Positions 1-31,042 of a stretch of DNA of 64,000 nucleotides are shown one piece after another (the first letter of the stretch is position 1; every line of letters starts with the position of its first letter). A program made the translations under genes and the position numbers. A model generated the notes under the pieces. That model worked only from the letters and a program-made list of their open reading frames with translations. It was not told the DNA's origin and made no database searches. This DNA comes from a virus (Duplodnaviria; Caudoviricetes): IMG/VR virus record IMGVR_UViG_3300037484_000435, positions 320,001-384,000 of that record; one strand, written 5' to 3'.

Positions 1-3000
1 CCAGGAACAGTATCCATAGCAGTTCCCCAGACCTTTTTAGTAACATCCGTTGCATAAGGAAAAGCGGACTCATCCCATTTTCTAAAGGTAGGTCGTGCAT
101 AACCTTCAAAATCTTTCATACCAGACCAAGCTGCTGAACCAGCGGCATTTACACCACGCTTAGCCAAATTCGTAACACTATCAGGAATATATTCAGAAAT
201 TTTCCCCACTAAGTCTTTTGTAGCTGACCAACCTTCACCTAAAAGAGCTGTACCCGACTTAACTATTTCTGAAGATCCTATAGTCTTTATAGCTCCCACA
301 AGAGCTTCAACAATAGGAGCAATCATTGGGTAACCAGTATAAGCTGTAGCCCCAGCCATGGTTCCTGCGCCCAAACCACCAAGGCCCAGCATTGTCATCG
401 AAGCAGGTAACGCATATGTTGCTGCAAGAGCTGCTCCGCCACCAATCAGGGCCGCTTTACCTAGCCCACCAGCCATGCGTCTCCATAAAGGCTTCTTTTC
501 ATCAGCAGGAGCATTTAAACGAGGTTCATCGAGGTTTTCCTCTCCTTCTGCGGGCGTATTGCTACGGTAAGTTTTTTCAGATGGAGTAAATAATCCCCCT
601 ATCCCACCAGTTACCGCACCCCATAGCGGGGCCGCTTTTATAACACTGGAACGAGAATCTAGAAAACTTTGTGGTAATAGATTGCTACCTTCAAGCAAAC
701 TTGACGCACCATACCACCCAGCACCAGCAATTGAAGACACAGCAGCACCAGAAAGAGCACCTTTTAACATTTTCCATATAGGTCTTTCTTCATTAGTAGG
801 ATTCAACTGTGGAGTTCTTGACACCCCCGCTGATGTTAATCCAGAAAGGGCCCCAACCGCTGCTCCCGCCCCCGTAGCTAAAGGTATGTGTTGGAGACCT
901 AGTCCATAAGCCATACTTCCCACTATAGGGGCAACAGCTGCCCCTATCAAAGCCGATCTCCCTGCACTTTCTAAAAACCCAGTAGGTTCCTGACGTAAAG
1001 GAGCGTAAGCTTGGGTACCAGGTGTTAATCCTCTATTCATAGCAATGTTTGCTAGTCTATCGGCGGGCTTGTTTTCCTCACGAGGAACATAAGAGAAAGA
1101 CACATTGTCAAATTGTGCTGCTAGCACATCCGCCTGAGCCTTAAGTTCTTTTATCTGCTCATTCTTCACCTTGAACTCATTTCTCATCTGTCCTACCATA
1201 ACTTCAGAGTCTGATCTTACTTTTATGTTTTGAGCGGAATTCTTAAGAGCCTCCTGTAAACCCATAATGAGGCCTTGGTACTCAGCAGCCATAGAAGTCA
1301 TTTCCCCAAGATATTTATTGACTTCTGCAATAGTCTGTCCCTTAGGATTTAATAGGACAGCACCAGCACCAGAAGGTCCCGGATTACCACGGGACCCAGC
1401 ATCAGTATATAGTGTATAAGGTTGTTGTGCAGGGGAATAATTCTGTAGATTTTTTCGCATAAAGGAAAGTTCTTCTTGTGGGGATGTCCCGATGGCCTCT
1501 CTTCCGGCTTTTTCTGCTACTAGCTCTTGTACCTTTGCGAGTTCATCCAAAACTTCTTGATCCTCATCAGTACGGAGACCTCCAGCTAGAGCCTCTTCTA
1601 GGGCATTTGCTGGCTCTTCCTCCCCCCTATCTCCGTATTTTTGCATATAATAATTCTGTATTTTCTTTGTATCTATACCAGGAAACTCTTTTCCAGACAT
1701 GATATCCTGCGCGATAGTAGGAGCGGAATAATCTATTACAGCATGCCCTTTTTCATGTTGCATTACGTTCATAAAAGCACGCATCTCTGCTCTATTTGTA
1801 GGGGAGAATAAACGGATATTCCCATCTTGGTAACGGCCTTCCCCTGCACCAAGCGTATCGTCTATCTCAACGTTAGGACTAAAACCATAAAACTGTTTAG
1901 CCCTTTCAGGATCCCTTTCCTCCATTGGCCTTACTTTGGAAACTAGCCACTGTCCTTTTTTAGTATCTTCGCCCTTCGGCTCGTAATTAAGAATATTGTA
2001 AGTACCATCAACCAAACCTTTAACGCCTTCCAACCTTACTGTGACATACCCTTCTTTTACACTTTCCAAAGTAGCCTTTCCTGTATCATAAGTTGCCATA
2101 TGACCAGCTCCATAAAAACCTTTGGGAATATCATATTCTCCTTTCTGGTAATAATCTATTGCGTGGTGTGCTGTAGGACCAATTGCTAATCTAGGCTTTC
2201 CTTTTTCAGTAGGCATAAACTCTGGTACCGCCCATGACTGAAGCTGACCACCAACCTCAATTCTCATATCATGGTGTGGCCCTGCCCTAAAGGCATCGTG
2301 TTTATGAACTACAAATCGGCCCACATCCCCTTCTTTGGCTTCCCCAGGAAACATAAATCCTGCCTCTTTAGAAATAGGCACTGCCTCTGGGTACTTAGGA
2401 GCTTGTCTCCTTGTATTTAGAACTAGAACTGGATCGTAAGGTAACTCAGGCATTCCTTTACCAAATATGCCTTTGCGTAATTCCTCTTGTGTAGCTACAA
2501 CTGCATCTTTGGCAAATGAAGGTATTGGCTCTACACTGGGAGCCTGGAGTAGGAACTTAGTTCCTTTCTTAAATTCTCCTGCCCGCTCAGGGGGCTGATA
2601 GAATTTATCATCTAAACCTTTAAGGTATTCCTCCATACGCTTCTTAGAGGTTTCTACAACGGGCCAATCCTCTGGATAGAGACCTTCCTGCTTTTGGACA
2701 AGAGATGGCGAAAAATTCTTGTAAGAGTCCTGATCTATCTCTTCTTCAGTTTGATATGCGGGAGAATATGATCGCTTTCCTTCTAACACCCTCGCAAAGC
2801 GTTCTTCTATTCTCTGTTCCGCGGATTCTTGTGTTCTCCAAGGATAACGGTTTTCCTCATTAACCAGATAATCTTTGGTTTTGAGTTTAAGCATTCTTGG
2901 GAAACCTGTTTTTGGATCAATTTCACCCAAGGCTTTAGCAACTACACCCTCCTCTATGCCCTTAAATTGATCTTGTTGAGTATACACCTTTTGTGCTAGG

Positions 3001-6000
3001 TCTTTATCAACCTTACCACGATAAAGTTCATCTACAGTCTTCAACTTCAAGTCATCTGCTAGTTTTTTGAACTCGTCTACAGGGAGAGGTTTATTAGCAA
3101 CCTTGGCATCAAACCAAGCTAACTGGTCTTTCTTTCCTCCCCATTCACCAAACAAATCTACTCGATGTCCTATATCTTTTGAGTATTTCTTAAGTTCAGG
3201 AGCCAGCCCTTCTTCCATCTGTTCAATAAAAGGTTTGTATAGTTTATTAGCAGTATCGGGGTCTAATACTTTATTGCGTGTAGCATAGCCTATCTCGGTA
3301 TTTCCCCAACGTAGAGGAACAGCACTCATTTTGATTTGATGACCATGACTCTTATACTGTGCCGATCCCTCAACGTCTTGTTCTAAGAATTTTGGGTCTT
3401 CAAAACCTGTTTTAATATGGGGGTAATCGGCTGGACTAAACCCACGAACAGCACGCCTGATGTTTTCAGGTGCTTTTTCTCCAAAAGCTTCTCCAGGTGT
3501 AAATGGGGGTCCACCAAAAGGCCCTCCAGGAGATGGCATAGTAGTGGATAATCCACCCCTAACGGACTTCTCTTCTATTGCTTTAAGAAACTCATTTCTA
3601 GATTTCTGGAATCTCATTGTATAAAAGTCTGGTGGTTCTATATCCAGTTCCTTCAGAATATTCTCCATTCTCTTCTTGAATACCATATTAATATAGCGAG
3701 TGTAGCCACGATTCTCACCATATATTCCTTCAGCATAAAGGGCTTCCAGAGGCTTTTCAGATTCGCTAGTTATCTTCTTAGCCTTCTGATCAAAATGAAA
3801 TATACTCTGCCAATCTTGTGATGTTAAATCAAAGGCACTATTAAAAATCTTTTCAACATCATTTCTTACTTTATGTGTGGGTTTAGATAGAATCTCTTCA
3901 AGGTCAACACCCCCACCAGCACTTGGCCTAAAAGGCCACATGGACTGCTCAGCGGAACGTGGTATTGCGGTATTCACACGAGATTCAACTTGGCTTAGCC
4001 GTAGATCTTCCCAGTCCTTTGGTAATCCTGCTCCTATGTGTTCAAGAATCTGCCCCTGGCGTTCCTTTATCACATTATTTATAAAATGTGTAACTCCTCG
4101 GCTTCCTCCGTAAACGCCCTCATTGCGCAAGGAAGAAATGACATCCTGATATGGTGTATCCTCGGAAGGAGACTTCATCCCACGAAGAACTGGGTGTGCT
4201 TTGTACACGCTCTGCCAATCTTCTTGGCTCAGCGTTTCGGTATTTTCCTTTACCGCTTCCTTCCAACTTTCTTTAAATAACGGGGAGAATGATGCAACAA
4301 GGTCCTGAGTTTTACCCCTTCCTACAAGTCCCTCAGATATTTGTGCAGGAAGGTTGACACCAGTTAAACCAAAAAAGCCTGAGCGGGAAGCTCTCCTAAG
4401 TGGGCCAATACCAGAACCATAACCAGCTTCCCCCGCAATATAAGAAGCTGAGGCCTCTTCGACTGCTTGTTTTCTAAACGCCGGAATTTTACGCAAGGCT
4501 ACGGTAACCTCTATATTGCTCGAATCTTCCATAGAACCCAAACCCGCCCCTTCTAAGGCTTTCTTAACCATAGGGCCGTGCTCTCTGCTATATACTAGTT
4601 TTTCAATTAAACTATCTACTTCTTTTGCATGGCTTGACTTGGGATCAGAAACCCTGTCAATCACAGATCTTAAGTAATCAGCTTTAACTCCTTCCCCCAT
4701 ATCTATGTACTTCAGAGCAGTTCCTCTTCTGATAATCTCGTGGGCTCGATCCATAGCCTGTGTTAACTTGTCGTTGGCCGTAGACCTCTCATCTGGGTTA
4801 CGAGCAAGCATACGTTCACGGAGTGCATCTTCAAAGGCAGTTTTTATTCCACTATCAATATAAACTTGGCCAGTTTCTTTGTCATAAGAAAATTTTCGTC
4901 CCGCTTTAGATTGTTCTCCATAAATTCCTTCGGTCTGCTTCGAAAAAGTTTGCACCTGATTAAGTAAACCCTCCACCTGATACACTTCTTTATTCATTAT
5001 TTTCATCATCTGGTCATGTGCCACAACAAACTCTTCATAAGCTTTCATTGCGGGACTTTCAAAGGTGTATTTCTTCTGTTCAGTGGCCCCACCAAAAGTC
5101 CCTATCATTTCTGGAATTTCTATCCCTTTACCCTTTTTATTTCTTAATACATAGTCAAGCACTTCAGCTTGGGATAACGCAGGACCCCCAGGAGTGTATT
5201 CATTTTCTATATCTGATCGTTTAGCATAGGACCCTACGGCCATCGCGGCCCCACCGGAAGTTTTCATCTTATACATAGGTTGCAAACCCCTATATAAAGT
5301 AGAAGTACTTATTCCAGGTTGTATAATTTCCTCACTAATATTCCTATAATCCCCCTTCCTCACTTTCTCGATACCTTCTCCCATAGCAGCAATCCTAAAA
5401 CCTATTTCTTCTTTAGATAATTTCTTACCTGATGCTTTTCGCATCTCGTCTATTACCAGCTGTGTAATATCATCTTTTCCTACTAAAGCTTGGAAATCAC
5501 CTTCGTTAAATTTGAACTTGGTTTTGAACCCTAAAGTTTGGAGTGTTTCATCCTCATAACCTGGCTTCCCTGCAACGAATCTAGCAAGACCAAGAGATCC
5601 TTTTTTAGATAAGGTGGCGTCCCCCGCCAAACCTGTTGCGTAAAGTTCCTTTACATTAGCAACGGACATACGCATCATTTGGTCAAAAACATTTTCAAAC
5701 ATAGCACGGAAAGATGTTTTCTGTATAATATCTTCTATTAATTGCTCCCGATCTTTGCCCTTTGTGGATATACCGTATTCTTTAGATTCGCTCTGTAATT
5801 GTTCTAAAGTGAGAGGACGTAAAAACTTTAGTCTGTATTTACGCATTGATTCTTCTTGTTGTCCAAAAAGAGCTTCCTCACCAGCGCCTTGCATACCACC
5901 TTTATATTCTCCCCAGCCACCGTGACCGGCATCAAGAGCCGATGTTAGCTGATCCAAATTACCAGTGAAAAAAGCTTGTTGAACTTTGGGGCTTAAATCA

Positions 6001-9000
6001 GAACCAGCGGAACCATGCTTACCACCAATAACTCTCTGGATAGTATCCCTCAAGAATTCCCCTAAAAGAAGATTGTAGTTCTCATGCAACTTGGGGGTCA
6101 ACCCCAACCCCTTCGGGTCTGCCCCTCGATACAATAAACCTATACGGTTAAAGGCTTCATATCCTTGTCCCATATCAACTTTATGCACGAAATGTTTAAG
6201 GGAGTCTTCCGCAATTGTTGAGGGGTCTGTTTCATGTATATCTAGAAGATTTTTCTTGGCGGCTTTAGTAATCTCATCAACGTAGTTCATGCTCTTCCAG
6301 CCGGGAGACGACGCCGACAACCTATACTTCAAACTAGCAGGTAATTCCTCTGGAGATAGTTCAGCGCCCTTAACTCCCAACGAGACCGCAGATTCAGGAA
6401 CATTGCTCTTTTGAATATTTTCGTGCATAAACCTACGAGTTGTACCATAATCTTTTAGTTGCATCTCATGGATACGTTTGAGTTCTTCGTTAGCTTTCTG
6501 AGTAGTAGCGGCATGAATAGAAATCATATCACCATCAAAATCTAGCGTCATACTGGCTTCATGGTAAAGCGGTAATAAATCTTTTGAAACTTTATCGATT
6601 TTATCAATATCGTCTTGTAACTTACCGACCTTAGAGGTGAATTTACCTCCGCTAGTTTCAAGTTCATTTTCAATCTCTTTGACTTTCTTTTCCCTTAGTT
6701 CTTCCAAAGCGTCCCGAGTTTTATTCATTGTACTGATAACTGGGTAATCCCCGATAGGTAAACCAGGAACAGCAACAGACCCAGACAAATCTTTCATCAT
6801 ATCATCCACCGTTAATTTTAGAGAACGGTAACTAAATTCATCTGTAGTAGGTTGTCTATTAATAAGAGCATAAACATCATCAACCTTACTTTGTAAATCA
6901 GGGGTCGCCATACCTGCTTTTTGTAACTCCACCAAATCTTTTCTACCAATACGTACTTCCCCTTTACCGATCCATTGTGAGGGGTGTTCTTTTTTGAATT
7001 CTCCCACATTCTTGAGAGATTCAGACATTTGACCTATTAATTCCTCGGAGCCAGGTATTTCTTCTTTGAACTCTTCCAAACGCCCAATACCAGACCTAAT
7101 AGCCTCACTAGGGTCATAAGGCCTATGCTGTGCCGTCAAGTATAAGGCTGGTATCTTCTTCTTCATAATGGTATTTGAAATTAACCCACCTCTACCGTAA
7201 ACTGTGCCGGACAATTCTTCATAGTAAGCCTGCAAGTTTCTCATTATTTCGCCATATTGTAAATCCAGAGCAGTTTTTGATGTGAGACCAACATTTTGAC
7301 CCCTAGCATCAAGTTTTGGTTCATATAATCTGAAATCCTTCACAATCTTACTCAATAACTCTGGGCTAACCAATTCCTTTACAGCATAATTTGGATTACG
7401 CCCCTCAGATATATCTTCGGACACTGTTTTCCCTATCATATTTGTATCTTGGGTATAGATTACTGAACCAGAAAGGAGGTCCCTCAAAAGACGTGCTCTA
7501 AAGTTTAAATTAGACACATTATCTTCGAGCTGGGAGAAGTATTTTGTATAAGCTTCACTTACTGTTATGCCCTTCTTAAAATCTTCTTCCAAGGATTTAG
7601 CGTGCTCTTCTGGCAAGCGAGAATATAAAGTTGGAAACCATGTTTTTTCTGGATTTTGAGGATCAGCGATCAAAGAAGACTTTGCGGAAAATTGTGGCAT
7701 CGGCATGTTCCCAACTAACCCTAGAGCCTGTTCCTCTAATTTTCCTAGAAGTTCTTTTTTAAATGGTATATCACGAACAGGATGAATTCTATTATAGAAA
7801 TCCCCTAACATAGTATCTACAAAAGTTTTTTGTATTTCTTCCACTTGTGGGGTCTTAGCTGGTTTTTGTAAAAGAGAGTGTTTCCTTACAGACTCGATTA
7901 ATTCAGATAGGTAACGGGCATCCGGAGAAGGTAAGATTTCTCCAGTTTCTGAAGTTACATATTGCCTTGCTTTAATTTCTGGAATTTCAATTAATTTTTT
8001 AATTGGCACCACCTGCTTTCCCTCTTTAATTCCAGCCGCTACCTCTTCCTCACGAGCCTTGCTTACTTCTTCGGAAGGTTCTGGCAAACGAAGCACCATA
8101 GATGGCCCATACTTGAAGGCGTCAAAAATGGTTCGAGATAAATCTGCTACTGTAGCTTTTCGTTTTAGTGGCGCTATATACTTGTTGGAGCCTTCATCTA
8201 CCAAGTCTTCTGGAGTAATAACTGTTTTAGACCTATCGCGTTCTAACTCTTGGCTTCGTAATTTAGAGAATGACCTGAAAGCATTTAGGTAAGCCCCAGC
8301 TTCTCTGGCATCAGGAAAGGCCCTCATTGTAAATTCATGCTCTAACGCCCCGCCTTTGGGAAATAATTTTTTGAGACCAAACCAACCATGGGGATCAACA
8401 GTCATTTTAGATTCACCAGACTCTAATTCCTCTTCTCCTTTGGATAACCAAGTTTTTGGCTCTTTCATTATCATGACATGCATAGCCCCAGCTATTGCTT
8501 TCTCTAATTTACCTTCCTTATCCAGAATAAACTCTTCCCCGTATTTTCCTTTAAGCCCTAAAATATCTTTATATAACTCGGCTAACTTACGGGCCTCAAC
8601 CCCAGAAGCTGTATTACCTACTGCCACTTTTGCTAATGGGTCCCTTTTAATTTGGTCAATTAAAGTCTCATCAGGAAGAGCAACAGATCGTAGGTTACCA
8701 ATAATATTATTCGCAATCATTTCTGCTAAATTTCCACCAATCATGCGAGATTTTTTTCCTATTCCAGAAGCAGATACTTGCAAATCTACAGGAACATCTC
8801 TGGTCAAATCTCCACCAACAACTTCCTGATATGCTTTACGTACTTTACCCATATCAGCAGAAATAGTCTTCACCTGATCCGTAGCAGTCTTCGCACCCTT
8901 TAACACACTCGTCGGAGCTAGTCCTAATCCCAGCACTTTCGATACAAATTCACGCCTCTCGTCTACACTCGGGGCATCCTCTCCTGTGAGCTTGCCTGTC

Positions 9001-12000
9001 CCGTATTCGATCGGTGTAATCTTCAAATCCTTTAAATGCTCAGAAGACATCATAATAAGATTTCTTGTACCTTTTATCATTTCTAAGGCTTTCTTTGCTT
9101 CAGCGGGATCCACATCCTTCCTAGCCTTAATCATTTCAGATAAAAGTTCTTCAAATGTTTTTGGGACCTCTCTCAGCATACCAATATCAGAAAACTCTAA
9201 TCTTGGGGCCATGCCTTTCTTAGCCTTTTCCACAAGAGAAGATTCAGCTTCAGGACCCATTCTTCTGGCCACTGTTACAGCGACCCCCTTCATAACCTGT
9301 CCCGTTGATATCTTTCGTGTCTCATGGCCAAGGTAAGCATTGAGAAGCTCTACAATGTTTTCTTCCACTGGGCCTTTGGGTGATTGAGACCACCGTTTTA
9401 CTATATCTTTTACGAATGTCTGGTCCGCAAGCTCTTTGGATTGTATGGGTGCTCCAAAAATATCGTGCCCCACTTCCTCTAGATACTTTATTATACTCCC
9501 CTTTAACGCCTCTGGGGTAGATTTAAGTGATGGCACAACCATCTTCTTAAATTTAAAGGTGGCTAATTCCTGTAACCTCTTACCTATTTGGTATAAATCC
9601 TCGTACCCTGCAGAGACATCCTTTAACACAGTTGTTACATTCAAACCTGTTCCATAAGGCCCCCATTCTCCGCCCTTAATAAAGCCATGAGCTTTACGAG
9701 AACGAATAGCATTAAACTCTGGACCAGCTAGAGAATCCCAAGCAGCCCCAGTAGGACGAGCCGGATTAATAGAATAGCCAAAGGCCTCAGTTTCTCTGGG
9801 ATCGTAAGAAGCGAATGGTTGTAAACGTTTACTACGAAACATAGACTCCATGAAATGATCACCAAAATCTCTCTTGCCCGCTGCCGACGCTTCATTAAGA
9901 CCCACAGTTGCTAACTTCTCAATAGTGGGGCCCAACCTCCGTTGAGAAGCTTCGGTTTGCCGTAGAAATTCTTTCTGGACTAACTCTTCCATATCTAGAT
10001 TTCGTGTAACAATAAAACGTCGTAATGCTTGCAAATCAACAGGTACTCCGTAAGAACTTGGTCCCGCGTCTATACCAGGAATTTTTGGTTGAATAGTAGT
10101 AACTTTGGCCCTACCATACACTTCATGTTTTTGCATCGCCTCATGCTCTTCCGGAACCTTCTCTTTAATTGGGTCAAACACTTTCTTAAACCTTTGTGGC
10201 AGTAGCTCTTGAAAATATGATTCATTTCCTAGACGGCCAGCAGACGAAAGACTATTCCTAAGTTTCTGCAGTTCATTACTGTCAGTCTTAGAGTAAGTTG
10301 CGGCACGGTTTAAAAGGCTATAAAAATCTACAGGTCGATATGTAGAAAACTGCTCCAATGTACGTTGCCATGCTCTATTTTGGTAATCGGACGCCCCAAA
10401 TTTTTTAAGTTCCTGCTCTTTAGTCTTTTGTAATTCTGATTCTAATTTCTCAGTTGGGATACGGGAAACTGCCTCACCGCTCTTTAGAGATTCTTTTCGC
10501 AAATATTCTAAAACAGGATCAGGTAATAATTCATACCTAGCTCCTTTACCTACTAGTGGCACCATCTTAGGCCTAAACTCTTTTTCTAATTTATCAGGAA
10601 GTTTAACTTCTCCACTAATAACGCTTTCTTTTAGAAGTCGCTCCCTAGTAGATTGTATAGCCTCCCGAAGAGCACTCTCGTATTGTTCATTGAACTGTTG
10701 TCTTAATTCGTCGATTGCGGTTAATGACTTGGAAGCTCTAGGTCCTCTAGTGTCCTTTATAAATTTTGAAACAAGATCAAAAGAATTTTTTACACGTTGA
10801 ACTACTTCTTCAGAAGCTCCTTCCTGACCGATACCCACACCATGTTCCTCGTGAGGACGTGAGCGCACCCAGTAATCTTTGGTTAATCTAGATAGATCTC
10901 GAATCTGCCTAGGTATGTCTTTTGGTTCTTTTCGCAGCGTCTTTACTTGTTCCATTAACGGAGCTATATACTTATCTTCCAACACATTAGGGGCAGGACG
11001 GGTTTCCAAGTACTTACCCAAGGTAAGGTATTCTCCTCGCTCTGGATCCCTAATAATTAAAGCCCCTCTTGAGCTCTTATGCACTGACGGTATTTGTATA
11101 GTCTGTCTAGTAAGGCCCTCAATGCTTTTGTTTACTAATTCAATACGTTTAGTAGCTTCTTCTGCCCCTAACTTCGCCTTCAGTTGTTGATCAACCATAC
11201 TTAGTAAGTCTTTCTGGATCTCCCGTAATCTATCAATAGAGTAGGACATAATTGTTTCAGCCTTACGAGAAATTCCTTTGGATTCAATATACTGGTCTAT
11301 AGATTTTTGAATGTCCGGACCAACATCGGTTTTGACGGAAGAAGACAGTCCTTGAGCAGACATCAGGGATTGCAGTTGTTTAGCTAAAGCTTTCACATCA
11401 GTCAAACCATACTGTGCCCCACCAAACTCATTAAATGTAACACGTGGATCCCCCACATAACGACCACCTATCGGGGCACCAATTCCACGCCGTTTGCTCA
11501 TTGACTCAACATCGTGAAATTCTGGTCCAGCGGGCTCAAAAAATTGTGGTTTAGCAAAAGTAAACACCATACTTCTTTGGAATTGCTCAAAAGACCTGCG
11601 TGTAGGAATAGCCTCAACCCCAAGCTCTTTGTCAAGGTCCTCTTTAGCCTTTGTAATAGCATCCCGCATCTCAACAACTTGCTTAGCTAATTTATTACTG
11701 TGTAATTCTTTCTCTACTGCTGAAGTAATTTGAGCCAGATTACCTGTAGTAATCTCCTCAAGCTTTGATTTTAAAGCGTCAACCTGTTTTAGGGCTTCTT
11801 GGTGTGACTCATAGCCAACTTTAGACAACGCTGTATGTATTTCCTGATAAACATCGTCCATCTGGTGTCTAATACGAAGAGCCTCTTTACCCAGCTCTTC
11901 CTTAGGCAGAGCCTGTAATTTCTGTAATTTCAGTTCAAGTTCTCGTGTAAAAATGTTGGGTGCCGCGATTTCTTGCAAAGTTCTTTCAGGACGAACATTG

Positions 12001-12530
12001 ATCTTTTCACCAGAAAAAGTTTCAATTACGTTAGGGGCCTTTAGGCCTTTCACAAAATCCATATAATCTAAGAACATATCCCGCTGCTGGTCAAGGCTAC
12101 GCCGCATTCTATCCGTATGTTGTTGGCTGGAATGAAACTGGCGATCGAATTCAGTTTGCATTTCCTGCCGAGCCTGAGAATACTCTTGTTTCTTTGTGAA
12201 TTCCTTGGAAAAAGGCTTTACTGGGTCAAATTCTTTTTTGGCAGTTTGGGGAGTGATCGGCCCTGCGGCCCGAAGATCCTTATCTCGAAGCATTGCAATC
12301 TGCTCTTCAATAGCATTTAATTCTGTTTGTATGCGGGATCTGTATTCCGATAAAATGGAAGTATCGTGGGATTGGGCGTAAGATGATTTGGCATCCTTAA
12401 TATCTCTAATATTAAGAGTTTTTAAATCTTCACGTAACTTATCTACAAAACCTTTTATATTCTCATTAATAGAGTCAGATAGTTGTGCGTCAATGTTTAT
12501 TTTTATATTAAAAGTATAATCTTCAGCCAC
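1..12530 (-). CDS. Giant tape-measure-position polyprotein (>=4176 aa, 3' end outside window) carrying RNAP, ligase, phosphoesterase, peptidase and RNase H domains
   Basis: GTG start at 12530 (MAEDYTFNIKINIDAQLSDS...), with GAGGT about 12 nt upstream. I translated the frame by hand over most of its length and found no stop down to position 3. It lies directly downstream of the tail tube and chaperone genes. It is absent from the ORF track because no stop lies in the window. Confidence 0.9.
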   Translation of the reverse strand, partial: MAEDYTFNIKINIDAQLSDSINENIKGFVDKLREDLKTLNIRDIKDAKSSYAQSHDTSILSEYRSRIQTELNAIEEQIAMLRDKDLRAAGPITPQTAKKEFDPVKPFSKEFTKKQEYSQARQEMQTEFDRQFHSSQQHTDRMRRSLDQQRDMFLDYMDFVKGLKAPNVIETFSGEKINVRPERTLQEIAAPNIFTRELELKLQKLQALPKEELGKEALRIRHQMDDVYQEIHTALSKVGYESHQEALKQVDALKSKLEEITTGNLAQITSAVEKELHSNKLAKQVVEMRDAITKAKEDLDKELGVEAIPTRRSFEQFQRSMVFTFAKPQFFEPAGPEFHDVESMSKRRGIGAPIGGRYVGDPRVTFNEFGGAQYGLTDVKALAKQLQSLMSAQGLSSSVKTDVGPDIQKSIDQYIESKGISRKAETIMSYSIDRLREIQKDLLSMVDQQLKAKLGAEEATKRIELVNKSIEGLTRQTIQIPSVHKSSRGALIIRDPERGEYLTLGKYLETRPAPNVLEDKYIAPLMEQVKTLRKEPKDIPRQIRDLSRLTKDYWVRSRPHEEHGVGIGQEGASEEVVQRVKNSFDLVSKFIKDTRGPRASKSLTAIDELRQQFNEQYESALREAIQSTRERLLKESVISGEVKLPDKLEKEFRPKMVPLVGKGARYELLPDPVLEYLRKESLKSGEAVSRIPTEKLESELQKTKEQELKKFGASDYQNRAWQRTLEQFSTYRPVDFYSLLNRAATYSKTDSNELQKLRNSLSSAGRLGNESYFQELLPQRFKKVFDPIKEKVPEEHEAMQKHEVYGRAKVTTIQPKIPGIDAGPSSYGVPVDLQALRRFIVTRNLDMEELVQKEFLRQTEASQRRLGPTIEKLATVGLNEASAAGKRDFGDHFMESMFRSKRLQPFASYDPRETEAFGYSINPARPTGAAWDSLAGPEFNAIRSRKAHGFIKGGEWGPYGTGLNVTTVLKDVSAGYEDLYQIGKRLQELATFKFKKMVVPSLKSTPEALKGSIIKYLEEVGHDIFGAPIQSKELADQTFVKDIVKRWSQSPKGPVEENIVELLNAYLGHETRKISTGQVMKGVAVTVARRMGPEAESSLVEKAKKGMAPRLEFSDIGMLREVPKTFEELLSEMIKARKDVDPAEAKKALEMIKGTRNLIMMSSEHLKDLKITPIEYGTGKLTGEDAPSVDERREFVSKVLGLGLAPTSVLKGAKTATDQVKTISADMGKVRKAYQEVVGGDLTRDVPVDLQVSASGIGKKSRMIGGNLAEMIANNIIGNLRSVALPDETLIDQIKRDPLAKVAVGNTASGVEARKLAELYKDILGLKGKYGEEFILDKEGKLEKAIAGAMHVMIMKEPKTWLSKGEEELESGESKMTVDPHGWFGLKKLFPKGGALEHEFTMRAFPDAREAGAYLNAFRSFSKLRSQELERDRSKTVITPEDLVDEGSNKYIAPLKRKATVADLSRTIFDAFKYGPSMVLRLPEPSEEVSKAREEEVAAGIKEGKQVVPIKKLIEIPEIKARQYVTSETGEILPSPDARYLSELIESVRKHSLLQKPAKTPQVEEIQKTFVDTMLGDFYNRIHPVRDIPFKKELLGKLEEQALGLVGNMPMPQFSAKSSLIADPQNPEKTWFPTLYSRLPEEHAKSLEEDFKKGITVSEAYTKYFSQLEDNVSNLNFRARLLRDLLSGSVIYTQDTNMIGKTVSEDISEGRNPNYAVKELVSPELLSKIVKDFRLYEPKLDARGQNVGLTSKTALDLQYGEIMRNLQAYYEELSGTVYGRGGLISNTIMKKKIPALYLTAQHRPYDPSEAIRSGIGRLEEFKEEIPGSEELIGQMSESLKNVGEFKKEHPSQWIGKGEVRIGRKDLVELQKAGMATPDLQSKVDDVYALINRQPTTDEFSYRSLKLTVDDMMKDLSGSVAVPGLPIGDYPVISTMNKTRDALEELREKKVKEIENELETSGGKFTSKVGKLQDDIDKIDKVSKDLLPLYHEASMTLDFDGDMISIHAATTQKANEELKRIHEMQLKDYGTTRRFMHENIQKSNVPESAVSLGVKGAELSPEELPASLKYRLSASSPGWKSMNYVDEITKAAKKNLLDIHETDPSTIAEDSLKHFVHKVDMGQGYEAFNRIGLLYRGADPKGLGLTPKLHENYNLLLGEFLRDTIQRVIGGKHGSAGSDLSPKVQQAFFTGNLDQLTSALDAGHGGWGEYKGGMQGAGEEALFGQQEESMRKYRLKFLRPLTLEQLQSESKEYGISTKGKDREQLIEDIIQKTSFRAMFENVFDQMMRMSVANVKELYATGLAGDATLSKKGSLGLARFVAGKPGYEDETLQTLGFKTKFKFNEGDFQALVGKDDITQLVIDEMRKASGKKLSKEEIGFRIAAMGEGIEKVRKGDYRNISEEIIQPGISTSTLYRGLQPMYKMKTSGGAAMAVGSYAKRSDIENEYTPGGPALSQAEVLDYVLRNKKGKGIEIPEMIGTFGGATEQKKYTFESPAMKAYEEFVVAHDQMMKIMNKEVYQVEGLLNQVQTFSKQTEGIYGEQSKAGRKFSYDKETGQVYIDSGIKTAFEDALRERMLARNPDERSTANDKLTQAMDRAHEIIRRGTALKYIDMGEGVKADYLRSVIDRVSDPKSSHAKEVDSLIEKLVYSREHGPMVKKALEGAGLGSMEDSSNIEVTVALRKIPAFRKQAVEEASASYIAGEAGYGSGIGPLRRASRSGFFGLTGVNLPAQISEGLVGRGKTQDLVASFSPLFKESWKEAVKENTETLSQEDWQSVYKAHPVLRGMKSPSEDTPYQDVISSLRNEGVYGGSRGVTHFINNVIKERQGQILEHIGAGLPKDWEDLRLSQVESRVNTAIPRSAEQSMWPFRPSAGGGVDLEEILSKPTHKVRNDVEKIFNSAFDLTSQDWQSIFHFDQKAKKITSESEKPLEALYAEGIYGENRGYTRYINMVFKKRMENILKELDIEPPDFYTMRFQKSRNEFLKAIEEKSVRGGLSTTMPSPGGPFGGPPFTPGEAFGEKAPENIRRAVRGFSPADYPHIKTGFEDPKFLEQDVEGSAQYKSHGHQIKMSAVPLRWGNTEIGYATRNKVLDPDTANKLYKPFIEQMEEGLAPELKKYSKDIGHRVDLFGEWGGKKDQLAWFDAKVANKPLPVDEFKKLADDLKLKTVDELYRGKVDKDLAQKVYTQQDQFKGIEEGVVAKALGEIDPKTGFPRMLKLKTKDYLVNEENRYPWRTQESAEQRIEERFARVLEGKRSYSPAYQTEEEIDQDSYKNFSPSLVQKQEGLYPEDWPVVETSKKRMEEYLKGLDDKFYQPPERAGEFKKGTKFLLQAPSVEPIPSFAKDAVVATQEELRKGIFGKGMPELPYDPVLVLNTRRQAPKYPEAVPISKEAGFMFPGEAKEGDVGRFVVHKHDAFRAGPHHDMRIEVGGQLQSWAVPEFMPTEKGKPRLAIGPTAHHAIDYYQKGEYDIPKGFYGAGHMATYDTGKATLESVKEGYVTVRLEGVKGLVDGTYNILNYEPKGEDTKKGQWLVSKVRPMEERDPERAKQFYGFSPNVEIDDTLGAGEGRYQDGNIRLFSPTNRAEMRAFMNVMQHEKGHAVIDYSAPTIAQDIMSGKEFPGIDTKKIQNYYMQKYGDRGEEEPANALEEALAGGLRTDEDQEVLDELAKVQELVAEKAGREAIGTSPQEELSFMRKNLQNYSPAQQPYTLYTDAGSRGNPGPSGAGAVLLNPKGQTIAEVNKYLGEMTSMAAEYQGLIMGLQEALKNSAQNIKVRSDSEVMVGQMRNEFKVKNEQIKELKAQADVLAAQFDNVSFSYVPREENKPADRLANIAMNRGLTPGTQAYAPLRQEPTGFLESAGRSALIGAAVAPIVGSMAYGLGLQHIPLATGAGAAVGALSGLTSAGVSRTPQLNPTNEERPIWKMLKGALSGAAVSSIAGAGWYGASSLLEGSNLLPQSFLDSRSSVIKAAPLWGAVTGGIGGLFTPSEKTYRSNTPAEGEENLDEPRLNAPADEKKPLWRRMAGGLGKAALIGGGAALAATYALPASMTMLGLGGLGAGTMAGATAYTGYPMIAPIVEALVGAIKTIGSSEIVKSGTALLGEGWSATKDLVGKISEYIPDSVTNLAKRGVNAAGSAAWSGMKDFEGYARPTFRKWDESAFPYATDVTKKVWGTAMDTVP
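3..1000 (-). other. Gly/Ala-rich hydrophobic segments (putative membrane-inserting tape-measure region)
   Basis: In-frame translation includes SALIGAAVAPIVGSMAYGLG, LATGAGAAVGALSG, MLKGALSGAAVSSIAGAGWYG and AGGLGKAALIGGGAALAATYALPASMTMLGLGGLGAGTMAGA. Confidence 0.65.
1029..1421 (-). other. RNase HI domain (Rv2228c/archaeal-type) within giant ORF
   Basis: YTLYTDAGSRGNPGPSGAG (D at 1401-1403), AAEYQGLIMGL, VRSDSE, VPREENKPADRLAN. All four acidic catalytic residues are present. The usual TNN is TSM here. Confidence 0.88.
1575..1870 (-). other. Zincin-like metallopeptidase domain within giant ORF
   Basis: GEGRYQDGNIRLF...VMQHEKGHAVI (HExxH at 1743-1757), with a downstream EEALA (1584-1598) as the likely third zinc ligand. 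Confidence 0.72.
1935..2411 (-). other. LigD-type DNA/RNA 3'-phosphoesterase (PE) domain within giant ORF
   Basis: RFVVHKHDAFRAGPHHDMRIEVGGQLQSWAVPE...RLAI..TAHHAIDY...IPKGFYGAGHMATYDTG...QWLVSK follows the LigD PE consensus FVVQKH..RRLHYDFRLE.DGVLKSWAVPK..RLAV..EDH.LDY..IP.G.YGAG...WD.G..WLL.K. Confidence 0.88.
2870..3380 (-). other. ATP-dependent ligase adenylation domain, RNA ligase (Rnl2-like), within giant ORF
   Basis: Motif I QYKSHG (K at 3351-3353), Ia YATRNKVL, III LFGEWGG, IIIa WFDAKV, TVDELYRG, IV EEGVVAK, V MLKLKTKDY, in canonical order. No OB-fold is recognisable afterwards. Confidence 0.78.
5241..7319 (-). other. RNA polymerase beta'-like (catalytic DPBB) region within giant ORF
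   Basis: YGRGGLISNTIMKKKI (cf. KGKQGRFRQNLLGKRV), GEVRIG, YALINRQPT (6846-6860; cf. VLLNRAPT) and MTLDFDGDMISIHAATTQKANEEL (DFDGD at 6528-6542; cf. [24 protein letters not shown]). The end boundary is approximate. Confidence 0.9.
5721..5813 (-). other. SAP/Rho-N-like helix-extension-helix motif
   Basis: LTLEQLQSESKEYGISTKGKDREQLIEDIIQ matches the L..ELK...K..GI...G.K.ELI..I pattern. Confidence 0.5.
8283..9659 (-). other. RNA polymerase beta-like (second DPBB) region within giant ORF
   Basis: GLNVTTVLKDVSAGYEDLYQIGKRL (YED 9597-9605; cf. E. coli [26 protein letters not shown]), KISTGQVMKGV (K-x7-K at 9288-9314; cf. KMAGRHGNKGV), VPVDLQVSASGIGKKSRMIGGNLAE (8742-8792; cf. [22 protein letters not shown]). 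Confidence 0.85.
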
Positions 12531-12552: not shown

Positions 12553-13647
12553 TTATTCTTTGGTGAATTTTTTACTCTTTGAAATACCCTTAGACTTTTT
12601 AAAAGTAACGCCGTCTTGTCCTGGGTCATCTTTCAAAGAGATATCGGCAACATTCCCAGCTTTAGGATTTGCCCGATCATACTGCCTATCCAAGTATTCT
12701 GGATGCGACTGCATAATTAATCTGGTGCTCATCTTCTCCGCCGTAGAGCTACCATATTTTTTCTCGGCCCGCCTTTCTGACCTGTCTTTCGATCTTTCCT
12801 TATGCAAGTCTTCCATATACTCGTCTAGTGCTCCATCATCTTGGATGACCCAGTCATCTGGCTGGTCCTCTGGAAGCATTTCATAAATAGATTGATAATA
12901 CCCTGTCCACCATAATAAGTTCTTTTGGTCAGGTGTCAATTCTATAGACGATTTTGGAAATAAATGAAGATTACCTTTCTGTGCGACTAAATAGTCCAAC
13001 CGCCACAAATTACTTCGGGCGATATACCTGATTTCTTCTGTCGTATGTCCAACTAAATATCTTAGAAACTCAGACAGAAGTTTGTTTTTGAGCTCAACTT
13101 TCCTTTCTACCTCCTTGCAATAGGTTAGGTAATTGTCCCATAATAACTCATCCGTTTCGGGGTCAAAACAGCAAGCCCATAACATGTAGTCATATTTGGC
13201 TTGTCGTGCTCTCCGTTCAGCAGTATTTGACATCATTATCTCGCGTTTCTTCTCGGCTTGAAATAATTCTTCCTCTAACTTATTTATACTCTCCTGAATG
13301 TAAGGCTTATAAGTAACATCAATATCTACGTCTGACATTTTTCTTTTATTCATGTCAAGTAATTTATGAATAGTTTCAACTTTTTTATCATCCTTTTCAG
13401 TCCAAATTCCGCGCTCACGCATTAGTTTGTCCATTTCAGATTCATTCATAATGTTGTCTTTTTTGGCACGGAACATAACACGGCGTTCCTCTAAATTCGC
13501 AAGGAGGGTGGTGTGACGGGAAGGATAACGGAAAATAACAAAAATAGGGAAATCCTCAGAGAAAAGAGAAACCTCAACAAGTCTTTGAGAAAAACATATC
13601 TGTTCTATTGTTAGTTGTAACTCGTCAAGAGTCCAATCAATAGACAT
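12553..13647 (-). CDS. Tail assembly chaperone, GT-like (long paralogue)
   Basis: Immediately upstream of the tape-measure ORF. It shares SNTAERRARQAKYDYMLWACCFDPETDELLWDNY with the 15859-16566 protein. Probable ATG at 13647 (MSIDWTLDEL). Confidence 0.6.
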   Translation of the reverse strand: MSIDWTLDELQLTIEQICFSQRLVEVSLFSEDFPIFVIFRYPSRHTTLLANLEERRVMFRAKKDNIMNESEMDKLMRERGIWTEKDDKKVETIHKLLDMNKRKMSDVDIDVTYKPYIQESINKLEEELFQAEKKREIMMSNTAERRARQAKYDYMLWACCFDPETDELLWDNYLTYCKEVERKVELKNKLLSEFLRYLVGHTTEEIRYIARSNLWRLDYLVAQKGNLHLFPKSSIELTPDQKNLLWWTGYYQSIYEMLPEDQPDDWVIQDDGALDEYMEDLHKERSKDRSERRAEKKYGSSTAEKMSTRLIMQSHPEYLDRQYDRANPKAGNVADISLKDDPGQDGVTFKKSKGISKSKKFTKE

Positions 13648-14542
13648 GCAAATCACCATACTTTATAATTCTATAACTACTCAATAGATCCCATTTTCTT
13701 GATAACCCAAACTGAACACTATTTCGACAGTCAATTAAAAATTTCTCGGCACGATTACCCCCTAGAGTATAATAACTATAAGTCCCAAAGTCTTTTACCT
13801 GACTAATCCGAGGAGCACCATAAGTGGAATCACAAAAATTCTTAATCCAAGCCAACAGATATCTGGTTCCACAAAAGCCTGTTACTAACGTGGGTATATT
13901 GTGTTTTTTATTCCAACCAAGGGAGACCCACCCATCACCATCAAGAAGTCCTTTAAGATAGGGCAGTATCAAATCATTATCTAATAACTTAGGGGGACGA
14001 AGTGTATAGGTCTTTTGCGGAGTAATAGAAAAATTGTTATTTAAATCTATATACCACCCCTTAATCCCAGAAATACGTATTTCAGCAAAATAGGAATTTT
14101 TACTAAAACCCCTACTTTTTCGAGAATGTATTTCCCCAGAAAAATGAGTCTCTGCTTTAAAAGATCCCAAAACAGAAGCATCCTTCTCAGCCAAACCTAT
14201 AGTTAATTGGTATCTATTTGCAGATAAGTTACCATCGGCAGCAATAAAGCCTGCCCAGTAAGAGTTGTGTGTATTCGGTTCGGAAAAGTAATCCAAATCA
14301 ACGGTTGTTCTGACTCGTCCTAAAGACAAGGTGTGGGAGGTATCACCTTTTATACCCAACCTCAGAAGTCTATTACTAACCGCACCTTTGCTCTTACCAA
14401 GTTGTTGTGAAATTTCTTTACGATTAACCTTTTCATAAAGAGATAATAGTAGCCTATCTTCTTCGGGAGTCCAATGTTTATACCCCTTAGTATTCTGAGG
14501 ATTGCGTGATTGGAGTTCATCTAAGGACCATTCTACTGCCAT
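13637..14542 (-). CDS. Free-standing LAGLIDADG homing endonuclease with one Myb-like W repeat
   Basis: SYWAGFIAADG and YLKGLLDGDG motifs; WTPEEDRLL repeat; RBS GGAG. Confidence 0.85.
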   Translation of the reverse strand: MAVEWSLDELQSRNPQNTKGYKHWTPEEDRLLLSLYEKVNRKEISQQLGKSKGAVSNRLLRLGIKGDTSHTLSLGRVRTTVDLDYFSEPNTHNSYWAGFIAADGNLSANRYQLTIGLAEKDASVLGSFKAETHFSGEIHSRKSRGFSKNSYFAEIRISGIKGWYIDLNNNFSITPQKTYTLRPPKLLDNDLILPYLKGLLDGDGWVSLGWNKKHNIPTLVTGFCGTRYLLAWIKNFCDSTYGAPRISQVKDFGTYSYYTLGGNRAEKFLIDCRNSVQFGLSRKWDLLSSYRIIKYGDLHVY

Positions 14543-14605: not shown

Positions 14606-15748
14606 TTAAGCAGGGATACCTACTTGTCTTTCATATTCTTTTATCTTGCCCCATTTACGAGCAAGACGTGTTGGGGTTGGGACTTTTTGTAACTCTTTGA
14701 GGATACGGTAAGCCCTCTTTCCACCTACTTTATAAGTAAAAGCCCTTGAACCTTTTATAGGATGGACTTTAGCATTTATCCCATACATAGAAGGACAAAT
14801 TTTGTCAAATATTTCCTTCGCCCACTCAAGTAAATTTTGAGTCCCTGTGATGTTAATAATAGGATAAATATGGCCCCACTTATCGGGCTTACTAGGAAGA
14901 ATAATAGAACCGTCTCCATCAATAAGACCCACCATAAAGGCCAAACTATTTTCATAGTTAAGCTTGGTCGGTGGTTCTAATACGAGCGTTTTATTCTGTA
15001 CAATGTTAAAGTTGTTCTTTAGGTCCTGCACCATCTGTTGTGCAGAGGAAAACTCTAGAAAACTCATTGGTGTCTTACCTTTTACACTAGTTGTTAACCT
15101 AGTACGAATGTCACCAGTAAACCTAGACAAACTTGCAAAAGAAGTAAGAACCAGACTATCCTTCAAATGTAGAGAAATACGCACAGTGGCACGTTCTTCA
15201 TCAACAGACCCATCTGCCGCAATAAAGCCCGCCCAGTAAGAATTACAAACATTTGGTTCCTTAAAAAATTCTCTATTGTAATCATAACGTCTACGGTATG
15301 AAGACGGGTCTTTCTTCAAACCCAACCCACGGGCATGGCTTGTAATTGTCCGATAGTCTTTGTCTGGTATCAAATCTCTAAGCTCTGATACGGGTTTTTT
15401 TAAATAATTACTAATTAATATCTGCTCTTCACCCTCAGACCACCGAGTACGTTTTTCTAAACCAAGGGTTAAGATTTTTTTCTTAATCGCTGTTTTGGAA
15501 CGAGCAGAACAGAGACCTAGAGAGACTATCTCGTCCACTGTAAGATATTTATAATTTTCTATTAGGGAAGCAATATCTTCCTGAGACCATTCGGACTTAA
15601 TGTAGCCCCGCAACCCCAGTTGTTCTGCTTTTTTGTGAATTGATGCTTTCTTACGTAACGGTAGAAGTTTTTCCATATCTATTGCTGGTATCCTTGAATA
15701 GTTAATCATCATAATTTCAATTTCTTGTGGTGTCCATTTATTTGCCAT
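14606..15748 (-). CDS. LAGLIDADG homing endonuclease with three Myb-like repeats
   Basis: WTPQEI, WSQEDI and WSEGEE repeats; SYWAGFIAADG and FMVGLIDGDG. Confidence 0.85.
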   Translation of the reverse strand: MANKWTPQEIEIMMINYSRIPAIDMEKLLPLRKKASIHKKAEQLGLRGYIKSEWSQEDIASLIENYKYLTVDEIVSLGLCSARSKTAIKKKILTLGLEKRTRWSEGEEQILISNYLKKPVSELRDLIPDKDYRTITSHARGLGLKKDPSSYRRRYDYNREFFKEPNVCNSYWAGFIAADGSVDEERATVRISLHLKDSLVLTSFASLSRFTGDIRTRLTTSVKGKTPMSFLEFSSAQQMVQDLKNNFNIVQNKTLVLEPPTKLNYENSLAFMVGLIDGDGSIILPSKPDKWGHIYPIINITGTQNLLEWAKEIFDKICPSMYGINAKVHPIKGSRAFTYKVGGKRAYRILKELQKVPTPTRLARKWGKIKEYERQVGIPA

Positions 15749-16887: not shown

Positions 16888-17820
16888 TTAAATCTCTGTC
16901 TCCTCATCACTTTCTGAATTACCTTTGCCAAATATCTTTTTGAGCCAACGTCGAATTCTAAGAAATCTAAACCACTTTCTCTTTTCCATTTTTTCTTCTA
17001 CAATTACCTCAGCATCAATAGGCTCTATCTCCTTAACAACCACAACCAAAGGTGGCACCTCAGTAGTTTCTCTTTCTTCAAACAAGTACGTGTAGTTACG
17101 CATTTGTTCTTTGTAGAGCTCTGTTGCATGTTGGTATAAACGTAAGTCTAGTTGATTGCGGTCCTCAATTAACTTAATTACTCCTTTTGGTAATTCTTCC
17201 TTAGTTAATCTGTCAGAAACATTAACCATAGGGAGGTTAACTTCCGGCCACCCTAATTTATGTGAACAAATTTTTATAAAACTCGGTAACTCCTCATACA
17301 AACTGAAAAAGGTAAAGGCATCTGATAGACGGGCTTTAGCATAAGCAAACATCAATTTTTTACTACCCGCCCGTAAAAAAGAGGAAAGAACTTGCGTTTG
17401 AAAATCAGACATGCCCATCTCATACACCATATCCTCACTACGCAAAATTTCCTCTAGTGAAAACTGTAGAGCTTTCTGGTGTAATGCATGATCCTCTCGG
17501 CCTCTCAAAAAATAATACTGAGAAATGACACGGTCAATGGGCTCACGAACCACTACATATTGATTTATAGTAATTTTTAAACGGCTATAAAAAGGGTCAC
17601 AAAGCCGGTAATGCCCCAATAAAGCCTTATAATTTCCAATTGTCCCCTGCTCAATAAGAGAAAGCACTTCTCTAGCTGTAGCTTTCTTGTAAGCGTCCCC
17701 ATATATACTCCCGAGTAACTCAGAGATGGAATTCCCCGCGGTTTTCGGCATGTGAAAAAATAATTGTAAATTGTTAGAGTTAAACTGCTTAGACACAAGA
17801 TTAGTAAAATTGGTTGGCAT
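16888..17820 (-). CDS. Sulfotransferase family 2 protein
   Basis: 5'-PSB-like FFHMPKTAGNS and 3'-PB-like VVREPIDRVISQYYF. Start at MPTNF (17820) with an AGGAG RBS. Confidence 0.8.
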   Translation of the reverse strand: MPTNFTNLVSKQFNSNNLQLFFHMPKTAGNSISELLGSIYGDAYKKATAREVLSLIEQGTIGNYKALLGHYRLCDPFYSRLKITINQYVVVREPIDRVISQYYFLRGREDHALHQKALQFSLEEILRSEDMVYEMGMSDFQTQVLSSFLRAGSKKLMFAYAKARLSDAFTFFSLYEELPSFIKICSHKLGWPEVNLPMVNVSDRLTKEELPKGVIKLIEDRNQLDLRLYQHATELYKEQMRNYTYLFEERETTEVPPLVVVVKEIEPIDAEVIVEEKMEKRKWFRFLRIRRWLKKIFGKGNSESDEETEI

Positions 17821-17923
17821 CTGCCCTCTCCTTGTATGATCCCCATCTACCCTTCCTTTAAAAGGTGGGATGATACTGGAGACCAACATAGATCCCCAGT
17901 ATCAGTTAAATTACAACCTTTAA

Positions 17924-21767: not shown

Positions 21768-22351
21768 TACGCAACTCCTAGCCTATCTGACAATTCTATC
21801 AGACGTCTCTCCAGAAGATCTCTTACACGCTCTTGCCCAGCAATATTCCTAGCTAACTTTACGGCGTGTTTTATGAGCAATGCATTATTGCAGTTATCGA
21901 TAATCTTCTTTGTCTCCTCACTCATCTTTAGCCAAGCCAATTCTTTGGGTGTCATTTCACCCTCCATAGCTCTCTTGATGTTCTTCTTAGAAGTTTGTGT
22001 AGCACGTGTCTTCTGCTCTTTCCTTTTCAACCTGCTAACGTCGTCTTGACCAGAAACTACCTCGTCTGCTTTTTTCTTGGCCATAGCCCCTCTCTTAGGC
22101 CTAGGGCCCTCCGAAAAATCTAATTGCCAAATACCACGATCCCGAGCGTATTCACTTTCTACTTTCTCTAAGAAATCCTTAAATTGTTCCGGTGACCACT
22201 CAGAATGCTTTGCTTCGACAGCTTTCTTACTGCGCTTTGGTTCACAAAATCCCTCAAACACCTCCTCTAAATCTAGAGACCCTCCAGGTGGAATCTGGTG
22301 TTTCAATAAAATTTTGTAGCCTCCGCTAATGTTCCTTGCTATGTATGGCAT
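21767..22351 (-). CDS. Hypothetical protein
   Basis: 194-aa charged ORF with a GGAGG RBS. Confidence 0.55.
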   Translation of the reverse strand: MPYIARNISGGYKILLKHQIPPGGSLDLEEVFEGFCEPKRSKKAVEAKHSEWSPEQFKDFLEKVESEYARDRGIWQLDFSEGPRPKRGAMAKKKADEVVSGQDDVSRLKRKEQKTRATQTSKKNIKRAMEGEMTPKELAWLKMSEETKKIIDNCNNALLIKHAVKLARNIAGQERVRDLLERRLIELSDRLGVA

Positions 22352-31023: not shown

Positions 31024-31042
31024 TGTAGTGCCTACCTCCACC

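Follow-up and report, generated by a model that had tools for sequence, protein, structure and literature searches.

A putative single-chain two-barrel RNA polymerase within the giant tape-measure protein of a large environmental phage

The locus considered here raises the question of whether a phage tail tape-measure protein can carry an RNA polymerase (RNAP) of the kind built from the β and β′ subunits in cells and, if so, what such a polymerase would do there. The window, i.e., the whole stretch of DNA that was analyzed, comprises 64,000 nucleotides and corresponds to positions 320,001 to 384,000 (G000:C1:320001-384000) of IMG/VR record IMGVR_UViG_3300037484_000435, a member of the Caudoviricetes represented by a single contig of 545,322 bp with a GC content of 0.42 and rated complete by CheckV. 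Positions 5241-9659 of the window encode, on the minus strand, amino acids (aa) 958-2430 of one continuous open frame, and a preliminary description of this region had proposed a single-chain two-barrel RNAP with an apparently complete active site. The reading that we favor, with a probability of roughly 0.68, is that aa ~950-2430 of the phage's only tape-measure protein are a single-chain two-barrel RNA polymerase, which forms part of the tape measure and is delivered in the same manner as gp96 of the Thermus phage P23-45. This module is homologous to RNAP β and β′, keeps their catalytic motifs and is fused to a tape-measure core, and the same architecture is conserved in about 100 metagenomic loci.

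To follow the evidence, the reader needs the geometry of the frame. Residue i begins at nucleotide 12530-3(i-1) of the window, and all features of the giant open reading frame (ORF) lie on the minus strand. The ORF starts with a GTG at 12530, preceded at 12 nt by a GAGG and at two codons by an in-frame stop, and its first 4176 codons fill positions 3..12530 before the frame exits the window at its start. In the complete record the ORF runs from G000:C1 332530 down to 288395 and encodes 14,711 aa in the standard bacterial code. Cysteine is absent from the first 4176 residues and occurs twice in all 14,711, both times in one K-C-L-C motif far downstream.

The RNAP module as a whole occupies 5241..9743 (aa ~930-2430), as delimited by the blocks shared with relatives in phmmer comparisons and by conserved blocks that reach aa 2425; the envelope of the family's hidden Markov model on the giant protein spans aa 631-2202. 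Its β-like part (8061..9743, aa ~930-1490) contains a double-psi barrel with the YED and K-x7-K motifs. When compared with the E. coli counterparts, which were taken directly from the sequence of the rpoBC locus, YED (aa 976-978, 9597..9605) is equivalent to β F812-E813-D814, K1073-x7-K1081-G-V (aa 1073-1083, 9282..9314) to β K1065/K1073-G-V, and PVD (1247-1249)...SRM (1261-1263), at 8742..8792, to β P1093-V-D1095...S1105-R1106-M1107. The β′-like part (6429..8267, aa 1422-2034) consists of an N-terminal clamp-like region followed by the catalytic double-psi barrel. Here GRGG (1779-1782)...KKKI (1790-1793), at 7152..7196, is equivalent to β′ G333-K-Q-G336...K345-R-V347, NRQPT (aa 1891-1895, 6846..6860) to β′ N424-R425-A-P-T428, and the metal-binding loop DFDGD (1997-2001)...H2006, at 6513..6542, to β′ D460/D462/D464 and H469. 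Thus, the motifs quoted in the preliminary description all lie where it had placed them, on the minus strand and in the order β then β′, and the pairings fit E. coli rpoB and rpoC.

The two large insertions that it had reported, of about 165 and about 100 aa, were measured at 165 aa (K1081 to P1247, in the β-like part ahead of PVD) and 101 aa (T1895 to D1997, 6543..6845). The second, described earlier as containing a coiled coil, is predicted to form a helical hairpin, made in our structural model by helices 980-1010 and 1017-1036. Between YED and K-x7-K there is a stretch of ~95 aa, predicted to be helical, in the place of the flap (sandwich-barrel hybrid motif, SBHM) that is inserted in β. 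As to the clamp zinc-finger cysteines, which had been noted as missing, the observation can be put more strongly, given the cysteine-free first 4176 residues: the module has no cysteines and hence no zinc sites, unlike cellular β′.

A set of short motifs may arise by chance, and D[FY]DGD alone was indeed present in 7 of 2000 shuffled sequences. The colinear pattern of all six motifs, which was defined post hoc and which matches both this protein (aa 976-2001) and the concatenated E. coli β and β′ (812-1806), was found in none of 5000 composition-preserving shuffles. Because, in addition, the motifs are the best-conserved columns of the family, the set is more than a chance assembly. This second argument requires some words on how the family was obtained. 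When 1.84 billion representative sequences were scanned exhaustively with HMMER, ten related proteins came up that fall into two groups, one 57-64% identical and the other 27-37% identical (E 6e-13 to 1e-4). A pattern derived from the DFDGD block of the distant group then recovered 33 IMG/VR and 63 metagenome loci, bringing the family to about 100 metagenomic loci, most of them on contigs that measure tens to hundreds of kilobases. The same kind of scan of IMG/VR with a pattern from this single protein gave no match, a word-indexed protein search with an alignment gave four close relatives only, and no match to the module, or to that of a distant relative, was found by tblastn in 50,697 GenBank phage records.

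In the alignment of 70 sequences, whose overall identity to this protein is ~20%, the columns with at least 90% conservation are those of the RNAP motifs; DFDGD is invariant and K1073/K1081-G-V is kept in at least 90% of the sequences. The family consensus is nearer to β and β′ than this protein itself, reading T-F-E-D-Q-I-x-I-S, G-R-K-F-T-T-R-x-G-x-K-G-V and P-I-D-x-R-I-S-x-x-G-x-x-K-R-G in the β-like part, and G-K-x-G-x-I, R-x-P-F-T-G-x-S-S-x-Q-P and K-L-D-F-D-G-D-x-I-E-x-H in the β′-like part. The position of the module is conserved as well: in each of the 32 IMG/VR loci with a visible ORF start, a giant ORF reaches DFDGD after 2060-2700 aa, and the giant frames of these relatives usually extend past the 10-kb flank. 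When the full protein was compared with the relatives' frames by phmmer, three colinear blocks were common to them, namely the β-like block (aa ~930-1490), the β′-like block (aa ~1730-2035) and the tape-measure core (aa 5555-6380, E about 1e-80). In one relative (L017, 9884-17455), the frame with DFDGD begins just before the β′-like part, and its gene may be split or frameshifted.

Profile comparisons give evidence for the relationship with RNAP that is weak but consistent. In four hhalign runs that compared the family with single E. coli sequences, the best local matches fell on four equivalent motif blocks, which were β PVD...SRM, β K1065-K1073, β′ GKQGR and β′ NADFDGD. With proteobacterial profiles, the matched pairs reached P values of 0.0026 for β and 0.00083 for β′, over 285 and 423 columns, respectively, versus 0.13 and 0.06 for controls in which the β and β′ profiles were crossed. 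In these alignments FED is paired with FED and PVD...SRM with its counterpart, and K-x7-K is left unpaired because the large inserts occupy different loops. The PF00940 model, which represents T7-type RNAPs, had no match in any control genome and is therefore uninformative here.

The fold predicted for the module points in the same direction. A single-sequence AlphaFold2 run on aa 950-2140 was unusable, with a predicted local distance difference test score (pLDDT) of 37, and the model used here was built on the 70-sequence family alignment. It has a pLDDT of 69.3 and a predicted template modeling score (pTM) of 0.57, with pLDDT values of 80-93 over aa 1369-2029 that fall beyond this range. The model was compared by VIA-align with 48,161 PDB representatives. 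For model residues 474-1085, the matches include the clamp of an archaeal RNAP (Z 9.4), the β′ of the AR9 non-virion RNAP (Z 8.8 over 269 aa), Rpb1 of Pol II (Z 8.4 over 238 aa), Pol I (Z 8.3), QDE-1 (Z 8.2 over 193 aa), vaccinia RNAP (Z 7.5) and M. tuberculosis β′ (Z 7.3). Those among the top 50 matches that start at the N terminus of the model (1 to 408-411) are all second-largest subunits of RNAPs, with Z from 7.0 to 8.1, such as plastid β (Z 8.1), RPB2 of African swine fever virus (Z 8.0), A135 of Pol I (Z 7.5) and Xanthomonas β (Z 7.0). The top 50 also hold many helical-bundle chains, which align only to the helical insert region (model 855-1047). Designed and VCP-type double-psi β-barrel domains align to model residues 845-1079 with a root-mean-square deviation of 2.2-2.4 over 77-82 of 86 residues.

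Other structure searches varied in their yield. Foldseek against the PDB returned nothing at E<=1e-3, its weak matches being merely enriched in β′ chains; when the top Foldseek chains were examined again, 111 had a Z of at least 8, nearly all of them RNAP largest subunits aligned over 230-276 residues, with a highest Z of 10.1 and with E. coli β′ 23-493 aligned to model residues 473-1080 at Z 9.3 over 234 aa. The top match among the AlphaFold DB clusters carries the name DNA-directed RNA polymerase (probability 1.00, E 6.5e-8). Ten ESM Atlas matches comprised six Rpb1 domain 1/2 clusters, one viral cluster with PF00623 in 64% of its members and three unnamed viral ones; the ESM Atlas feature search had no usable match, and the best match in BFVD is a "minor tail protein" (probability 0.97). 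The two double-psi barrels on which the preliminary description had made its reading depend can be accounted for in the model, since the β′-type barrel is clear and the β-type part matches second-largest subunits at Z 7-8.1. Its identification of a single-chain two-barrel RNAP homologue with an intact set of catalytic motifs is supported by motif conservation, by the profile alignments and by RNAP subunits at or near the top in three structure libraries.

That the carrier is a tape measure is evident from the same ORF. The giant protein has a PF10145 tape-measure core at aa 5701-5898 (E 2e-26), outside the window and the only copy in the genome, lies downstream of the head and tail genes and has several hydrophobic segments, and is thus the tail tape measure of this phage. 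PF10145 also follows the polymerase in the same frame in the relatives L031 and L008. A precedent for this arrangement is P23-45 gp96, a tape-measure-fused, virion-borne and active RNAP (PMC10770324), which has been found in experiments to enter with the DNA and to transcribe the first genes (PMC10770324). Since the module belongs to the only tape-measure protein of the phage, as in gp96, "virion RNAP" seems a reasonable label for it.

In this reading, the two lysines and the E/D pair come from the β-type barrel, after which stand a β′-type N-terminal, clamp-like region and a barrel with the DFDGD loop for magnesium. The module is covalently part of the tape measure. On the analogy of gp96, it would probably be assembled into the virion, and the polymerase would exit through the tail with the DNA or ahead of it. 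It would then transcribe, on a DNA template, the first genes of the entering genome, needing neither the host polymerase nor a sigma factor, and the same chain would also deliver an RNA ligase, a 3′-phosphoesterase and an RNase H. In agreement with the earlier remark that the window has no sigma gene, sigma-70 region 2 was not found anywhere in the genome; no search was made for an alpha subunit.

Likeness to gp96 is one of plan. In each case a single-chain two-barrel RNAP that has a DFDGD loop is contained in a giant tail tape measure, both proteins have metallopeptidase-type motifs and membrane segments, and both are encoded in a head-tail gene module. However, hhalign of this family against gp96 aa 1-1200 detected no similarity, the top match being spurious. 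The RNAP of gp96 is N-terminal, clampless and flat, whereas the module studied here begins ~950 aa into the chain and has, in the model, a β′-like N-terminal or clamp region, although one devoid of zinc-binding cysteines. Moreover, P23-45 has a paralogous non-virion RNAP, gp64, whereas a search of this genome with the family profile found no paralogue of the module; a second match to the DFDGD region (G000 398755-398871, E 0.002) was dismissed as chance because it concerns a short helix-like string in a 103-aa protein. The present protein is also three times longer than gp96 and has, in addition, the RNA ligase, phosphoesterase, RNase H and DnaJ domains.

Cellular and jumbo-phage RNAPs, such as E. 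coli RpoB/RpoC, archaeal Rpo1 and the non-virion RNAPs of AR9 and PhiKZ, have the same six core motifs in the same order, and the best structural matches span β′ 23-493 and the β barrel region. They differ in that β and β′ are here fused in one chain for which Pfam models fall below threshold, in the lack of cysteines from the module, in the stretch of about 95 aa, predicted to be helical, at the place of the β flap, in the extra 165-aa insert between K-x7-K and PVD, and in that no sigma was found in this genome. The crAss-like phi14:2 gp66, QDE-1 and YonO-type enzymes share the single chain with a DxDGD loop, and gp66 is likewise a virion-packaged domain of a large protein. Nevertheless, the structural matches are weaker with QDE-1 and with the phi14:2 structural protein (E 4e-3, probability 0.18), the motifs are nearer to β and β′ than to those of this group, and the carrier is a tape measure rather than a capsid cargo protein. 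Overall, the family resembles cellular β/β′ more closely than gp96 does; it has a gp96-like arrangement, a different lineage and a far larger carrier.

Several observations weigh against the reading that we favor. No Pfam RNAP model scores above threshold on the module: PF00562 has no match genome-wide, and PF00623 attains 12.1 bits versus a cutoff of 25.3, at the DFDGD site only. HMMER searches of PDB sequences, by phmmer and with a nine-sequence profile, returned nothing related, and the hhalign probabilities are low, 0.1-24%. The β-type barrel is poorly modeled around K-x7-K (pLDDT <50 at model 119-147), and its structural matches, at Z 7-8, are in the range that the tool rates as middling. 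As the same holds for the Z values in general, the argument rests on the uniform identity, the length and the correct order of the matches. Beyond the catalytic barrel, the bridge helix and trigger loop can be placed only tentatively. The conserved blocks in this region (aa 2111-2131, 2151-2175 and 2416-2425, LQPMYKMKTS; 5241..6200) are candidates for them, and a greedy hhalign path sets aa 2416-2425 opposite the E. coli trigger-loop region (QLTMRTFH) with a P of 0.15, which is not significant; the bridge-helix placement, with the same P of 0.15, is not trusted, and the candidate MKT resembles the E. coli MRT by eye only. In this phage's subfamily the equivalent of β R1069 is a glycine (G1077; the wider family has arginine) and that of β′ N458 is a threonine (T1995). 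For this reason the active site, previously called apparently complete, is so for the metal triad, both lysines and the E/D pair, and not for every residue that contacts the nucleoside triphosphate. It is also not obvious that a folded polymerase of 1500 residues with a clamp-like domain would fit in the lumen of a tail tube. Finally, the phage is uncultivated and known only from a metagenome.

The locus allows other explanations. It is unlikely, though worth keeping in mind, that the module is a genuine two-barrel polymerase with a different job, for example, copying RNA as QDE-1 does, providing replication with primers or R-loops to be processed by the fused RNase H, or acting in RNA repair or counter-defense together with the ligase and the 3′-phosphoesterase. 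In favor of such a job are the structural match to QDE-1, the fact that RNA-dependent polymerases and PolD also belong to the two-barrel enzymes (PMC10770324), the RNA ligase, LigD-type phosphoesterase and RNase H in the same chain, and the N458 equivalent of β′, which is not conserved. Yet the best and longest structural matches, which include the β′ N-terminal region, are to the largest subunits of DNA-dependent RNAPs, and the motifs are nearer to β and β′ than to any other clade. The RNA-repair domains, for their part, occur only in this phage; its relatives have the polymerase without them, which indicates that the polymerase function predates those domains. Alternatively, the domain may derive from an RNAP but have lost catalysis and now play a role in the tape measure that is structural, DNA-binding or pore-associated, as the very large insertions, the loss of the R1069 and N458 equivalents in this subfamily, the poor model around the β lysines and the subthreshold Pfam scores could suggest. 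We consider this very improbable in view of the invariant DFDGD and of the lysines, the E/D pair, PVD...R and R-x-P being kept at 90% or more over about 70 sequences with ~20% identity, a pattern typical of selection on an active site.

The route of delivery is a separate matter, for an active RNAP might not travel through the tail at all. The N-terminal ~5500 residues could be cut off and then be carried as capsid cargo, like the crAss-like or N4 virion RNAPs, or serve as the sole polymerase made in the infected cell. Two zincin-like HExxH motifs (aa 3592, nt 1743-1757, and aa 4371) and hydrophobic segments lying between the enzymes and the tape-measure core would suit such a cleavage, searches of the genome revealed neither a second phage RNAP nor a sigma, and the folded module's size speaks against its residence in the tube. 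The fusion to the tape-measure core is, however, kept in all relatives examined, and gp96 demonstrates that a tape-measure-fused RNAP can be present in virions, so we regard this route as rather improbable and retain a polymerase that is delivered as part of the tape measure.

As to the broader meaning, the linkage of a virion RNAP with a tape measure was termed a "previously unsuspected association" in 2024, when it was known from one group of Thermus phages (PMC10770324), and no description of the present family was found in the literature searched. We see even odds that the family is an undescribed and widespread lineage of β-β′-fused, cellular-type RNAPs residing in giant tape measures of large environmental phages, that it arose independently of P23-45 and that the chain studied here delivers the polymerase with an RNA-repair set and DnaJ along with the DNA. 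The family is a second, sequence-unrelated one with the RNAP-tape-measure arrangement, and its presence in about a hundred metagenomic loci suggests that the coupling of DNA entry to transcription via the tape measure is recurrent. With its six core motifs and β′-like N-terminal region, the family connects the single-chain phage polymerases with the cellular β/β′ type. Because standard RNAP models miss it, surveys based on Pfam or COG will record no polymerase for such phages. The locus also raises the idea that enzymes for repairing or processing RNA may be injected along with a polymerase. Furthermore, P23-45 has a ratio of about 0.16 nm of tail per residue (800 nm for 5002 aa), and if the whole chain sets the tail length at this ratio, a tail of more than 2 micrometers would result.

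The remaining domains of the giant ORF and its surroundings deserve a brief description. The RNA ligase domain covers aa 3060-3216 (2883..3353; PF09414, E 6e-10), the LigD-type 3′-phosphoesterase domain aa 3409-3504 (2019..2306; PF13298, E 5e-16) and the RNase H domain, found by domain search, aa 3704-3829 (1044..1421). This set (window 1044-3353) is absent from the relatives examined, and is therefore specific to this lineage; one relative, P0010, has a DEDD-type exonuclease (RNase_T, E 2e-6) at aa 314-413, upstream of its polymerase module. The DnaJ domain lies near aa 12,600 of the giant ORF (aa ~12582-12638, genome ~294,600).

Upstream of the tape measure, and likewise on the minus strand, are the genes for the portal (47313-49337) and the major head protein (29938-31041); a match to a tail sheath was not found. 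A kinase-like protein (22326-23900; phrog_10912, E 1e-29) and a sulfotransferase-like one (16888-17889), both on the minus strand, are encoded in the interval from the head genes to the tape measure. Scattered through the head-tail module are at least 11 paralogous homing-endonuclease-like genes that match phrog_4645, several of which combine weak LAGLIDADG or HNH matches with a Myb/D5-like N-terminal domain. Those in the window, all on the minus strand, are at 13637-14542, 14606-15748, 24316-25134, 28359-29525, 42062-43102, 43748-44620 and 46378-47307, and others are found in L105 at 2758-3615, 3913-4848, 5205-6182 and 6924-7745.

The genome encodes 40 tRNAs, one of which (G000:C1:47126-47202) has a CTA anticodon that would read TAG; the giant ORF is open under the standard bacterial code despite this tRNA. 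Downstream of the tape measure there is a second giant ORF of 5058 aa (G000:C1:261891-277064, minus strand), which may encode a tail fiber or baseplate component.

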